Positions 14,765 to 61,184 of a DNA stretch of 64,000 bases are shown in pieces. Numbering within the stretch: the stretch's first letter is position 1; every line of letters begins with the position of its first letter. The notes under the pieces were generated by a model, which saw nothing but the letters and a program-made list of their open reading frames with translations, ran no database searches and was not told the origin of the DNA. The DNA lies in the NCBI GenBank assembly GCA_951406725.2, contig OX597825.1, positions 61,752,001-61,816,000 on the forward strand, read 5' to 3'. A program made the position numbers and the translations under genes. The DNA comes from Octopus vulgaris. Lineage: Eukaryota.

Positions 14765-14843
14765 ATGTCTTACAGCTGTTTTTGGGATATCCCAAGTGAT
14801 AGGTTAGCATCTTCATACACTGGGTATTCCATCATCAGAGACA
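14765..14843 (-). ncRNA. Degenerate type-I hammerhead ribozyme motif
   Basis: TGTCT-CTGATGA-long stem II-(A)AAAC AGCT GTA-AGACA; the G of GAAA is mutated. Confidence 0.6.
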
Positions 14844-14902
14844 AAGTGAGTATGTGTAAAAGTTCTAGACAAGGAATTCAAAATTTATACATGAATGAAA
14901 TA

Positions 14903-15110
14903 GAGTTTCAGACCCCACTTCTCTGACATAAACCCTCTCTTTCAGGTATCCCCACAAGAAAAATTTGGTCTAGTCAAGTCTGGGGAACATGAAGGTCAGT
15001 TAACATTGCCATAGCAGGAGATTATTCTCTCTCCAAAGCACTGCCGTAGCAACTGCATTGTTTCTCTTGTAGTATGAGTAGTTGCCCCATCTTGCTGGAA
15101 CCATGTGTGA
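14903..15110 (-). pseudogene. Tc1/mariner DD41D (rosa/Visitor-like) transposase fragment
   Basis: Translates WFQQDGATTHTTRETMQLLRQCFGERIISCYGNVN*PSCSPDLTRPN then, after a frameshift, WGYLKERVY; 41 residues lie between the second D and the third catalytic position. Confidence 0.8.
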
Positions 15111-15117
15111 GGTCTAC

Positions 15118-15504
15118 TTTGAATGGCCTTCACTTTCCCCAGATTTGACTAGCCCAGATTTTTCATGCGGGGATAACTGAAAGAGAGGGTTTACATCAAC
15201 AAACTGGAGACACTGGTGCAACTGAAGGAGAACATCAATAAAGAAACAAGAGAAGTGGGGTCTGAAACTGTTGAGGGTGTTATGTGCAAGTTTTGGAAAG
15301 AGTACAGGCATGCAAAGATGAAAACGGCTGCCATTTAAGCGATGTCATTTTTCATATGTGATGTAGTGGTGTTGCAAAATTTGACTTATGCATATTAATT
15401 TACATTATGTTTTTTTATATTGTATCAAAATATCATGCATTTATTGGTAAAGCTAAGGAAGTTCTTAAAAATTGAAACCCATCAGTGACTTTTGGGACAT
15501 CCTG
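15118..15504 (+). mobile_element. 3' part of the same DD41D transposon family with its right TIR
   Basis: EWPSLSPDLTSPDF..LKERVYINK...ENGCHLSDVIF*; ends TTTTGGGACATCCTG|TA. Confidence 0.8.
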
Positions 15505-16399
15505 TATATATATGTGTGTGTGTGTGTGTGTGTGTGTGTGTGTATAGTAGTACCTCAGTTTTCGAACAACTCTGATCACAAATAAATCATGCATTATCTC
15601 CTGTCTTTCTCATATTCATTTAATAAGTAGTACCTTGGTTTACGAATGCCTCTGATCACGAATAACTCATGCTTTATATATATATATATATATATATATA
15701 TATATATATATATACACACTCACATAGACACAGAGAGAGGTGGAAAAGGAGTAAAGAGAGAGGGAGTTATATATTATATATATGTATACACACGCACGCA
15801 CACACACACCTATACACAGAGACACATATATACATGCACATACATGGAGATATAAGTATACCTATATTTGATAGGCACCTTTATTGTCTTTCTATGTTTC
15901 CAATAACATTCACTCACAAGACTTTTCCCAAAATAACACTGGAACAGTAGAAGGCATTTATCCCTGGGGTAAATGAAGTAGAATTGAATACCTAAATACA
16001 TGGTAAAAAGCAAAGCATTAAACCACATGATTTTTTTTCCTGTTCCTACATAGGAAAGAAACTACATGATTTATAATTCTCCAAATTCTTAATAAAAAAT
16101 AAAAACAGAAAATACACCCTAAAATCTTTTTATTCATCATTAGTATAGATAAGGGCCCTTTCTGTTTAAAAGTTTACAATACAATTTAGTGAAAATTATC
16201 TTGTAAGCAAAACTTCATGTCATCCCTACTCAAATCTAATTATAATAGATAATTTCAATGCAAAACTGAGAGATAATTATTTTTTAAACTTTCTGCTTCT
16301 AGACGTGTTTTCAGTTCTCTTCATTGCTTTTATCACCTTTGTTTGTGTCAGGAACATTTTGGTTTTATCCTTTGCTGCTTTTTACCATTCTTGCTCATG

Positions 16400-16730
16400 T
16401 GAGTGTGTGTGTATGTATATATATATATATATGTACACACACACACACACACACATATATATATATATATATATATATATATATATATATATATATATAT
16501 ATATATATATATATATGTATATATGTATGTATATATGTATGTATGTATGTATGTATGTATGCATGTATATATATATATGTCTATATATGATATATAAGTA
16601 ATTAGCTATGTATCCATCTATCAACAGCTCTCTTTGTCTGTCTCTCTGTTTGTCTCTCTCTCTCTCTCTACACACACATACATACACACACACACACACA
16701 CACACACACACACACACACACACACACACA
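16400..16730. repeat. Compound (TG)/(TA)/(TATG)/(TC)/(CA) microsatellite
   Basis: Direct reading. Confidence 0.95.
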
Positions 16731-16879
16731 TTTCACTTTCTTCTGATCAGTTTAGATAACTTTGGCACATCTCTTTTCAACAAAAACTAATTTCTAAAAA
16801 AATTTCAGAAATATTAAATATAAATATTCCTTATCGTTTTGCTTATCTATTTATTCATTCTCGTAACTAACGGTATGTA

Positions 16880-57930: not shown

Positions 57931-57939
57931 TATGTATGT

Positions 57940-58470
57940 CTCTTCTATTTTTTAATTATCATAAATCTTCCTCTGAGGAAGGAGCCAGTTTCCAACAAAG
58001 ATACAAGGCTCTATCTTTAGGATGCAGTTAACACAGACAAATTCACATTTACAATTTGAGAAAAGTCTTACATATTTTTATTGTTCCACTCATAGATTGA
58101 ACTTGTAATGTACGAATTAGCTGGTTAAATTCTGTTTCTAAAAATCCAAGTTTAGCCAGATTTTCCTTTAAGCGTTTACTAACAAAACCTAGTGCTCCAA
58201 TTATTATTGGTATGAATATGAATTCATAGTCTGCATATATAAGCTGGATATTTCGAAGCAGCTGTCCATAGATATCCTTTTTTACTTTGATCTTCAAAGG
58301 GATATTTTTATCTGCAGGGCAGCTGACCTCTATGATTGTACATACCAATGCCACACTGACCAAAACTACAATATCTAGCCTGTTATGTTTACATTTGACA
58401 GAAGATTTGATGGGAATATTCCACCAGTATTCCTTGAGTTGATGTTTATGAATGTTTATTTCAGAACAAT
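57940..58470 (-). pseudogene. R4/Dong-like non-LTR retrotransposon 3' end (restriction-like endonuclease)
   Basis: EYWWNIPIKSSVKCKHNRLDIVV...CTIIEVSCPAD.N...K...Y..L...IPIIIGALG matches the HNRPD..IE...P / K..Y..L / GALG RLE signature; flanked by (TATG)n. Confidence 0.85.
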
Positions 58471-58534
58471 CTTTTGTATGCTTGTATGTATGTATGTATG
58501 TATGTATGTATGTATGTATGTATGTATGTATGTA

Positions 58535-58782
58535 TCATATCTGTCGGGCATGTGGAAGAGAGTGTAATTCGGCAGGAGGACTTAAACGACATGCAAAGGT
58601 ACATGAAGCCCAGTTACAACTACAGCCAGCTATTACCAGTAAAGGTTTTAGTTGCCAATTTTGTACAAAACATTGTAGATCTTTAGCTGGGCTAAAAAGT
58701 CACATTCGATCACAGCACCAGTAACAGTTAAGCTTCGTGCAATGGCCATACTTGATAACGAGGGGACAGCCATAATAATAAT
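58535..58782 (+). pseudogene. RTE-clade LINE 3' end with two C2H2 fingers and an (ATA)n tail
   Basis: CRACGREC.SAGGLKRHAKVH and CQFCTKHCRSLAGLKSHIRSQH*, short 3' UTR ending CGAGGGGACAGCC(ATA)n, embedded in (TATG)n. Confidence 0.75.
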
Positions 58783-60290
58783 GTATGTATGTATATATGT
58801 ATGTATGTATTTCTTGTCACTGATAATCATATAGAGCGCTATTTCATTCTTCTTAGATATCATCTGCCTAACATAAACTCTAACTTACTAATTAAATATT
58901 TTATGATGTGAAACATTTCACTAAAGATGGAAATAATTACAGTCTGGAGAAAAATCATAGAATATCTTCTTTTTCTCTTTTCGTCATAGAATGTTAGCAG
59001 ATTAGAAGTCATGAAAATAGAGAAAATAGTTTTTGGATACAGAATAACAGCTGTTTGCAGAGAATTCTACCTTGTTAAGATGTTTTACGGTAACCACTAG
59101 TTTCAGTTTTAATTGCAAACAACTTCTCAAACTATTTCCTGATGTATTCTTTGAGATGTAGACATTTCTTTCAAGTTGGCATATTTCAGTGATATTATCC
59201 TCTGTGTGTTATGGACCAGACATCTACAGTTAGATATTCAAAAACCCAATTCCTTCCTTTTCTCTTGGTTCTCTTCCAGAACATTCTAAGTTAACGAAAA
59301 TAAGAAATAGAATATTATGCAAGTTTTAACTTTCACCTTAAGATTTTCTAACTAAAATCGTATTAGGCATTATAAGCCAGAATTTGAGACAGATGAGAAT
59401 AACAAACTCACTCTTTTAAGAAATAAACCAGAACAGAGTAAAGGTAAATTTTTAAACATTTCTAAAAGGAAATTAAAGAAGAAACAAAAATAATACTAGG
59501 AAACAGCTAAAGACCGTACAGGAGACATTCATTTGTCTCCTTTCATTTACTTATAATACAGTCACGTCTATGACATGTACTGCTCACATTCTTAGATCGG
59601 TTCTTGTAATATGATAACGAAACAGAAGAAAGTAAGTCATGTTCTTTCAGAATTTAATATAAATTTTCAACCTATTTTTCCATTTGGGTTTCAGTTTCTC
59701 TGATTTTTAAAATAATTTTTAAAAAGTAATTTTAAAAATGTGTTTAGTTAATTGGAGTTTTCAATCTAGAAATCTAGTATTGATTTCTTACATCAGTAAG
59801 TACAAGGCAATGTTGTCCTTGGCGGGATTTGAACTCAGGACATTAAGAATGATAAAGGAATACTGTAATTTTTGTATGACACTAATTATTCTGCCAATCA
59901 TTTACCTTTTGTTTAATAATATACTGAATTGATATCTAACCCTGAAAATGCTGGTTTCTGAGTCTCCAACGTTAAAATCTAAAACACAAAGCAAAACATG
60001 TGTCTATATGTAAGCATTTGTGTGTATACATATAGATGTGCATATATGAATAAATATGTATATCAGTATTTATCTCTTAATCTGTCTGTCTATCTATCTA
60101 TCTTTCTCTCTCTCTATTTATCTATCTATCTATGTCTATCTAGTTATATATTTATATATATATATATATATATATATATTTAATAAATAACTAAATGAAT
60201 GGAAATCAAACTGGTGAATGTGTTAAATAATAAGGCACTAAAAAAGAGAATAACTCTACACAAACACAATAATATATATATATATATATA

Positions 60291-60576
60291 GTTCTATATT
60301 TGAGAGATGAGGAATTATGTACATTATTTACATTATTTACATTTGACGGATATTTGTCCTCATCTTGTTCGTTGTTAACCTGTTTCAGCTGATGTACTGT
60401 CCAGCCTTCATCAAGTGTCCTAGGGGAATTTTGAACCTGGGTCCTTACTCCAGAGGTATTTTTCCAATGTTATTATTATTACTATTATTACTATTCAGGT
60501 CACTGCCTGGAATTGAACTCAGAATCTTGGGGTTAGTAGCCTTCACACTTAACCACTATACCATATGCTCATGGGT
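60291..60576 (-). mobile_element. Composite element: tRNA-like head, (AAT)n linker and hammerhead-bearing module, flanked by (TA)n
   Basis: Minus strand: TGGTATAGTGGTTAAG (A box), GAGTTCAATTCC (B box), (AAT)n, then ACAC-TTGATGA-AGGCTG...CAGCT-GAAAC at about 60382-60418. Confidence 0.65.
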
Positions 60577-61100
60577 ATATATAAAATATACATATATATA
60601 TATATATATATACAAACATACATACATATATATATATATATATATATATATATATATATATATATATATTCGTCACCACAACCTCGTTTAGGCTTCTCAG
60701 CCCTTCCACTTTGTTTTCACTGTCCTGTTTGTGTTACCTATTTTGACCCTCCACAAAATCCCAAATTTTATTTTATTTGCTTTGTGGGAGCTACTGTTTT
60801 AACAAAAGTGTATATTGTTGTTAAATGCTCGAAAAATGAGAGTAGAAAACAGCCAACAACTTATGAAGGGTCGGTCTTTATATTTGTTTTGTTTTCCATT
60901 TGTGACTTTCGTTGTTCGAAAGAATAGTTAATGTTCCAGGTACTCGTGATTCGTACGCTTTTGCTGTGCACATTTCATAACGTCCTGTGCCCACAAATGC
61001 ATATATATATATATATATATATATATATATATATATATATATATATATATGTATATGAATAAAAAAATGGAGTTAACGCAGGTGTAATCAAATATTTTTA

Positions 61101-61184
61101 CTTTCGACACATGTTTCGAAAATTCCACTGATACTATTCAAAAGAATAAATGGTATAAACAATGCAATCTTCTCCTCAGGAAGG
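61101..61184 (-). ncRNA. Type-I hammerhead ribozyme motif, core intact
   Basis: CCTTC-CTGAGGA-GAAGATT...AATTTTC-GAAAC ATGT GTC-GAAAG; same family as 23475-23553 (shared TCGACACATGTTTCGAA). Confidence 0.75.

Follow-up and report, generated by a model that had tools for sequence, protein, structure and literature searches.

Two kinds of described RNAs come closest to those that we found in a stretch of 64,000 nucleotides of the Octopus vulgaris genome (assembly GCA_951406725.2, contig OX597825.1, positions 61,752,001 to 61,816,000; called here the window and numbered from its first letter), namely the minimal hammerhead ribozymes of Penelope-like elements (PLEs) and the non-circularly permuted hammerheads. 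The former, as described in PMC4209133, are mostly single, with some pairs on opposite strands, are probably truncated PLEs, and are weakly active only as dimers; they have an extra unpaired base in the link between A9 and G10.1. PLE insertions include inverted truncated partner copies, target (TA)n and have a tail of 30-40 bp at one end (PMC8557442). In the same work Craig et al. 2021 listed 17 Naiads, PLEs without canonical hammerheads, whose 'HHR_core' or 'HHR_half_core' fits no descriptor. As to O. vulgaris itself, 31 recently active Penelope-like families and 2 Hero families have been reported (Bonar et al. 2026, PMC13282606). The permuted types SGC and CSG were validated by Eckert et al. 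2023, with block C, i.e. CUGAnGA, assumed to be unbroken, so that at most 1-2 nucleotides were assumed to fit between it and its stems (PMC10085705). Hammerhead variants with additional helices have been reported as well (PMC13725137).

Here we describe, in the 3' untranslated region (UTR) of a non-LTR (long terminal repeat) retrotransposon on the minus strand at 31168-31270, a fold which keeps all hammerhead core letters in a non-circular order and which is apparently an undescribed hammerhead variant: no description of a split hammerhead fold in retrotransposons was found among the Rfam matches listed, in literature searches or in passages of PMC6765202, PMC4640811, PMC13725137, PMC13580325, PMC10162972, PMC10886601 and PMC8967140. 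The window, AT-rich DNA of animal type that abounds in microsatellites and repeats and whose sequence five organisms share, also contains a group of hammerhead motifs in type-I order, which alone would be routine. Taken together, we consider it likely that the type-I motifs are PLE ends and that the permuted fold is a self-cutting RNA, as predicted, in the 3' UTR of a non-LTR element.

A permuted hammerhead fold in the 3' UTR of a non-LTR retrotransposon

The features concerned are the following.

31295 to 31567, minus strand: C-terminal 91 codons of a reverse transcriptase with a restriction-like endonuclease (non-LTR retrotransposon)
31168 to 31270, minus strand: non-circularly permuted hammerhead fold in the 3' UTR of that element (G10.1 strand from 31243, predicted cut after 31219, G12 at 31204, C3 at 31184)
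60743 to 60875, plus strand: decayed look-alike of the permuted fold, in a 330-bp piece (60671-61000) without open reading frame (ORF) between TA tracts

The protein piece has 54 relatives at 50-67% identity, out of 262 candidates. RVT_1 was found in the three long ones tested (1008-1172 amino acids). The C-terminus exhibits, by eye, a cysteine-histidine knuckle and the PD...E motifs of restriction-like endonucleases. Judged by these features, the host is a non-LTR retrotransposon with a restriction-like endonuclease, which, judging from its C-terminal motif, may belong to the Hero clade. No relative of the endonuclease piece was found among viral contigs.

In the 3' UTR, reading along the minus strand, the cleavage site GUC (31221-31219) is followed by GAAA (31204) and then by CUGAUGA (31184), which is the S-G-C order of blocks. 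All three are preceded by the G10.1 strand of stem II. A closing helix and a hairpin are placed between A9 and G10.1, and stem III contains one mismatch. Readings of the motif at 31184 as a type II or type III hammerhead were rejected by eye, as no stem II forms after A9. An earlier sequence-only reading of this interval had listed motifs in type-I order and overlooked both sites with reordered core blocks, this one (31184, minus strand) and a second one (60860, plus strand).

The relatives analysed were the best 80 of 145 loci confirmed by a metagenome scan, 72 of them with at least 150 nt of 3' sequence. GAAAC followed by CUGAnGA within the same range of spacings is present in 50 of these 72 loci, and the remaining 22 include several decayed copies of close relatives. 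A strict parse of the fold is passed by 42 of 81 entries (the 80 loci and the window), but by none of 73 reverse complements, 63 ORF-internal stretches and 365 shuffled sequences. All three anchors occur in 48 rows; since the core letters and GUH served as anchors, their invariance is not independent evidence, and their frequency among loci is. For the analysis of pairing, 21 rows below 75% identity were kept, with registers fixed by the core letters alone.

In these 21 rows pairs form in 120 of the 126 cells of stem I and in 111 of the 126 of stem III, and a single position may show as many as five pair types (slid registers, in an earlier run, gave 35-64 of 138 cells). The classical stem II fails (32/84 and 41/84 cells paired). 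In most rows the partner of the strand before GAAA is found 19-20 nt upstream of U16.1 instead, and all 5 bp of this displaced stem II are formed in 16 of 21 rows (control mean 2.0, maximum 6), with G10.1 being G in all 21 and 11.1 being C in 20. The strand after A9 pairs with a segment still further upstream, forming a closing helix with at least 7 of 8 bp in 17 of 21 rows (control 4.7, maximum 10); the hairpin that sits flush between this segment and G10.1 is paired in 74 of 105 cells. Finally, the free sides of stems I and II pair with each other (the I-II helix), giving 6 or more bp in 19 of 21 rows (control 2.7, maximum 7). The displaced stem II, the closing helix and the I-II helix were found by a best-match search, and their controls used partners taken from other rows. 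An independent alignment by MAFFT, with 23 loci, has 86.2% of its cells paired versus 61.9% after shuffling (0/500), including 94.9% for stem I, all six pairs of which covary; the lower value for stem II (74.8%) arises because two registers stayed one column apart in the alignment. Block order and six of the seven helices are borne out by the relatives, and stems I, II and III together with the I-II helix are supported by covariation.

Two peculiarities of subgroups may be added. The subgroup to which the window copy belongs (L002, L004, L005 and L053) has a shorter spacing from G to C, of 20-22 nt, and a conserved small hairpin directly after the closing helix (31140-31170 on the minus strand of the window). 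In the 3' UTRs of L014, L036 and L055, position 3 of the permuted core is U, and L036 and L055 have A at position 8; covariation between U3 and A8 is known for hammerheads.

The second site, at 60743-60875, has a closing helix of 8 bp, a hairpin of 7, a stem II of 4, a stem I of 6 and a I-II helix of 7, with G5 changed and stem III not formed. With a descriptor that was relaxed after this candidate had been seen (no stem III required, one core mismatch allowed), two sites are found in the window versus one match in 200 shuffles, and 26 of 72 loci match versus none of the reverse complements. The piece that harbours it (60671-61000) has no ORF, and its fold and TA context alone agree with a Naiad; two short sequence terms taken from it gave no Naiad match in the supplement of PMC8557442.

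Predicted cleavage, a non-cutting alternative, and Naiad elements

We think it probable that the permuted RNA forms a hammerhead active site that would cut after H17, about 75 nt past the stop codon. The RNA chain would enter and leave the core between A9 and G10.1 by way of the closing helix beside the hairpin. After the cut, the products would stay joined by four helices (the closing helix, stems II and III and the I-II helix), so that the RNA would be nicked, and open to re-joining, with no end set free, and this would explain why the genomic copies keep both sides of the site. The extra base that PLE minimal hammerheads have between A9 and G10.1 implies that this link may tolerate an insertion.

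Some of our observations speak against an active ribozyme. Among close relatives, homology in most cases stops some 30-90 nt beyond A9 and in none at H17, and therefore the templates were uncut, re-joined, or read across the nick. The window copy failed the strict parse, owing to its one stem-III mismatch, and as a nested structure it folds no better than shuffled sequence (z 0.43). The count of double-change pairs, one of five measures of covariation, is not significant (149/500), and the covariation statistics ignore kinship among the rows. Furthermore, the layout breaks the assumption of Eckert et al. about the room between CUGAnGA and its stems, and cleavage may be absent.

In an alternative, the fold descends from a hammerhead but does not cut, and provides the reverse transcriptase of the element with a 3'-end handle, like the structure in the R2 3' UTR. 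It accounts for the retention of both sides of the predicted cut in every related copy and for the place of the fold as the terminal structure of the element, with a core opened at the very link that is closed in the published hammerheads (PMC10085705). A mere handle, however, fits poorly with catalytic letters that are kept across rows below 75% identity while the helix sequences turn over freely, with variation at position 7, the one that is free in hammerheads (U in 10, C in 6, G in 3 and A in 2 rows), and with the recurrence of the same core in Naiads, whose protein is unrelated. We consider this alternative rather improbable, and a cutting hammerhead remains our preferred reading.

The evidence from Naiads was read by eye from snippets around search terms in the supplement of PMC8557442 and is not a computed count. 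The split fold is recognisable at the 3' ends of the octopus consensi Naiad_Obim and Naiad_Ovul, and likewise in two probably cnidarian Naiads and one probably ostracod Naiad, the species being deduced from the order of files. Several nematode Naiads have type CSG with an ordinary stem II, and reopening CSG between A9 and G10.1 would yield the split form. At the 3' end of a Naiad, the permuted fold or the C-S-G form would fill the role of the hammerheads in other PLEs.

The broadest reading is that an undescribed active hammerhead, permuted non-circularly and opened between A9 and G10.1, is the standard 3'-terminal RNA of a whole clade of elements with a restriction-like endonuclease and of many Naiads, was exchanged between the two unrelated groups, and explains the 'missing' hammerheads of the Naiads; we favour it only slightly over its denial. 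The permuted fold offers a testable answer to the seeming want of hammerheads in Naiads. If the reading is true, non-circularly permuted hammerheads move from virus-like circular RNAs into common repeats of animal genomes, the inseparability of the CUGAnGA block from stem II falls as an assumption that limits current search patterns, and a ribozyme that nicks its RNA without releasing the products would bear on template handling by retrotransposons.

Type-I hammerheads beside TA repeats

The type-I sites and their partial copies sort into about seven families, labelled here by letters.

14700 to 14870, minus strand: decayed minimal type-I hammerhead of family A with a change at G12; C3 at 14838, cut predicted after 14771
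17820 to 17960, plus strand: family C minimal hammerhead, decayed; core position 6 is U instead of A, likewise in the copy near 32280
23423 to 23590, minus strand: family B type-I hammerhead, decayed (A9 changed); tail stops at (TA)20
23592 to 23700, plus strand: palindrome with the 5' half of family B in inverted orientation (C3 at 23658), paired head to head with the copy at 23423-23590
26911 to 27029, plus strand: family A type-I hammerhead with complete core letters and 10.1-11.1 unpaired; tail stops at (TA)16; C3 at 26921, predicted cut after 26960
27740 to 27910, minus strand: 5' half motif resembling family A (C3 at 27897), joined to the 3' end of family E in inverted orientation
28009 to 28262, plus strand: family E type-I hammerhead with a tail reaching (TA)25; C3 at 28019, predicted cut after 28074; stem I 6 bp, stem II 3 bp
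28889 to 29023, no strand assigned: imperfect palindrome with a 3' half motif (GAAAC at 28940, minus strand)
29215 to 29332: second copy of the family E tail
30822 to 30993, minus strand: family D type-I hammerhead with one core change, inverted partner of 31645; C3 at 30928
31582 to 31912, plus strand: family D type-I hammerhead with full core letters and a tail to a TA tract; C3 at 31645, predicted cut after 31722
32156 to 32330, minus strand: decayed minimal hammerhead of family C whose core has U at position 6; tail stops at a TA tract
49555 to 49745, minus strand: minimal hammerhead of family H, its GAAAC block changed twice, flanked on either side by TA tracts; C3 at 49681
60291 to 60470, minus strand: family F, decayed copy of a very high-copy repeat; position 3 is U
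61050 to 61200, minus strand: family B type-I hammerhead, core and stems intact; tail stops at (TA)24; C3 at 61179, predicted cut after 61106

The sequence-only reading had listed about nine such motifs, which are all present, and had missed the inverted pair at 30928(-)/31645(+). Its decayed sites and its half motifs are likewise there, those at 23658 and 27897 being partial copies of families found elsewhere in the window. Of its three 'intact' cores, the one at 61179 has full core letters and long stems, a combination shared only with 31645; 26921 has complete core letters without the 10.1-11.1 pair, and 28019 has a stem II of only 3 bp. Several host families do exist, as it had held, although their number is about seven and not roughly five, and two of them, those at 17846/32280 and 49681, look related.

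The anatomy and surroundings of the motifs fit PLE insertions. Tracts of (TA)5 or more lie within 200 nt downstream of the predicted cut at 8 of 12 sites, hand-picked and not fully independent, versus 14.2% of background positions (p about 5e-5); with only 2 of 12 sites having such a tract upstream, the adjacency is polar. The inverted duplication noted from sequence appears as head-to-head truncated pairs in two families (23550/23658 and 30928/31645), with palindromes or inverted tails beside other sites. Stem III is a palindrome or near-palindrome of 6-8 nt (palindromic at 14838, 26921, 28019, 30928 and 31645, nearly so in family B), and its computed pairing with a second copy amounts to -4.6 to -11.1 kcal/mol. 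The 10.1-11.1 pair is G-C in families B and H and in the contig consensus of family F, and G-U in family D; an extra unpaired base follows A9 in families C, F and H. The DNA upstream differs between copies of the same family, being a mariner remnant at 14838 and a probable reverse transcriptase remnant at 26921.

In keeping with the described PLE insertions, the type-I motifs are likely the decayed 3' ends of several PLE families inserted at TA repeats. Reverse transcription would begin at the TA tract, copy the last 50-250 bases of the element including the ribozyme, and halt early, with an inverted second copy often made. The short palindromic stem III would fold only between two copies, and for this reason single genomic copies are probably inactive. 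The assignment to PLEs rests on RNA and insertion features, as there is no PLE ORF in the window: RVT_1 and GIY-YIG matched none of the 150 ORFs scanned out of 220 listed, which detracts from it. Two observations speak against an active core: the U at position 6 in both copies of family C (17846 on the plus and about 32280 on the minus strand), which suggests a family-level core variant by comparison with the related family at 49681, where this position is A, and the U at position 3 of family F.

Family F was followed in contigs of four sequencing runs, aligned to 60291-60575 at 80% likeness. The aligned contigs number 19356, 16992, 1718 and 1674 per run, with about 17-19 thousand in each of two organisms. 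The loose ends of the contigs yield a consensus in which the GAAAC-GUH block is whole again, as is the 3' strand of stem I, and stem II is regained with the majority letter at 60387. Position 3 (60414) is U in most aligned contigs, with no other letter listed; depth there is about 6% of that in the tail, and a bias toward look-alikes of the window copy is possible. Loose ends cluster at 60292 and at 60320-60329, and this spacing of about 30 nt resembles the tail of PLE insertions in PMC8557442. Back-joints are rare, with 1-2 contigs only, and a 30-base pattern of the family F tail was found in no stretch of the metagenome contigs. Two runs presumed to be of RNA gave no pile-ups of starts or ends, which contigs would not reveal in any case. 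A tRNA-like segment with motifs like A and B boxes lies at 60500-60575 on the minus strand and immediately precedes an AAT-rich tract and the hammerhead of family F, all three lying between TA runs. ARAGORN called no tRNA, including at 60500-60575. The segment and family F could be a hammerhead-bearing short interspersed element (SINE) or separate insertions.

An alternative for the type-I group is the one that had been proposed from the sequence, namely that the motifs are short non-autonomous ribozyme retroelements, like retrozymes or SINEs, mobilised by PLEs and not truncated from them. No ORF adjoins any motif, just as had been stated, and family F is very abundant and is preceded in the window by the tRNA-like head; besides, the origin of retrozymes lies in the terminal repeats of PLEs (10.64898/2026.07.22.740005), and Schistosoma has SINEs with hammerheads (PMC6765202). 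However, no type-I motif in the window sits in a tandem array, the upstream DNA of same-family copies is unrelated at 14838 and 26921, and the motifs are minimal whereas the retrozymes of PMC7229834 have canonical ones. This explanation is possible and, on balance, doubtful. From the original proposal the link to PLEs fits the evidence, namely minimal type-I hammerheads, palindromic stem III, head-to-head truncated pairs, (TA)n at the 3' side and the 30-nt spacing of copy ends; a single non-autonomous family does not emerge, as there are several host families and the account by truncated PLEs is already given in PMC4209133.

As for the number of motifs, the core letters match at four places (C3 at 26921, 28019 and 31645 on the plus and 61179 on the minus strand), as compared with a mean of 0.28 and a maximum of 3 in 300 block dinucleotide shuffles of the window. 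A descriptor that also requires the stems gives three strict matches (28019, 31645 and 61179) versus none in 25 shuffles. When one core mismatch is tolerated there are four matches, versus four in total over all 25 shuffles, and with two there are seven, versus a mean of 1.4 per shuffle in 10 shuffles; two of the seven, at 2834 and 39589, look like chance matches. The strict type-I matches are real and above chance level, and shuffled sequence does not reproduce their density. Rfam gave no hammerhead match among the 150 of 206 rows listed for the window, nor among the matches listed for two sub-regions and 12 loci. That the motifs are chance matches in AT-rich, repeat-rich DNA is extremely improbable and already refuted for the strict matches: it can point to the yield of shuffles at two core mismatches and to the window-wide palindrome count, weak by itself (five real, reached in 14 of 300 shuffles), and it may apply to 2834, 39589 and the half motif at 28940, but the strict and core-letter counts, the rarity of the permuted descriptor in shuffles and the covariation among relatives contradict it.

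Several further observations concern the neighbourhood of these motifs. The endonuclease fragment lies exactly between the two inverted copies of family D (30822-31912), in the sense opposite to the right-hand copy, and may represent a later insertion or a co-integration. At 27883-27910 on the minus strand a family-A-like half hammerhead is fused to an inverted family E tail, perhaps by a template switch between two families. Directly upstream of the hammerhead at 26921, a probable reverse transcriptase remnant of another long interspersed element (26500-26790, plus strand) was recognised by eye, with no Pfam match, and a palindrome (26781-26858) separates the two. Mariner transposase remnants are located at 14930-15500 (by motif), 29842-30108(-) and 53664-53903(-), the latter two with Pfam matches to HTH_48 and Transposase_1. 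A 270-bp palindrome at 51819-52090 is near-perfect (95% identity). A unit of 184 bp is repeated three times at 37549-38100 and twice at 47000-47367, within an abundant SINE-like family; neither of these tandem repeats contains CUGAnGA or a hammerhead core. Finally, a C-terminal piece of another retrotransposon with a reverse transcriptase is found beside (TGTA)n at 58052-58534(-). A protein search with 58052-58480 gave three relatives at 51-55% identity, and the element may be R4/Dong-like.

Comparison with known systems

The type-I group follows the already known pattern of truncated PLE ends. With the minimal hammerheads of Cervera and de la Pena 2014 (PMC4209133) it shares type-I order, a short palindromic stem III, a long variable stem II, mostly single copies, nearby pairs on opposite strands and several families per genome. 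It differs from them, as far as they are described there, in that no full PLE ORF is present in the window and that two families have core changes that look fixed (U at position 6 and U at position 3). Non-LTR retrozymes (PMC7229834; 10.64898/2026.07.22.740005) are likewise short ORF-less repeats with type-I hammerheads and kinship to PLE terminal repeats. They are defined in these sources by tandem units with canonical hammerheads, and since no window motif is in tandem, the motifs are not retrozymes as defined.

The permuted fold resembles the HDV-like (hepatitis delta virus-like) ribozymes of R2 and other non-LTR retrotransposons (PMC6765202) in being a self-cleaving RNA, here by prediction, at the end of an element; according to that source, those ribozymes belong to another class and occupy the 5' end, whereas the window has a hammerhead fold in the 3' UTR. 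With the Naiads of PMC8557442 are shared the 3'-terminal position and the preference for (TA)n, with the difference that the intact permuted copy of the window belongs to an element with a restriction-like endonuclease and not to a Naiad.

The permuted fold also resembles types SGC and CSG (PMC10085705), which have the same core letters, the S-G-C order of blocks, a short linker between stems I and II, and an extra helix linking the other sides of these stems. In type SGC the 10.x strand comes directly after CUGAnGA; in the window fold it is found upstream of block S, with two extra helices in the A9-G10.1 link, and block C is broken, no stem II strand following within 1-2 nt of CUGAnGA. The RNAs of Eckert et al. 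were tied to virus-like circular RNAs, and retrotransposons appear in the supplement of that paper only as the title of a reference. As modelled, the permuted RNA of the octopus element would work like type SGC, without being a member of that type as it was defined.

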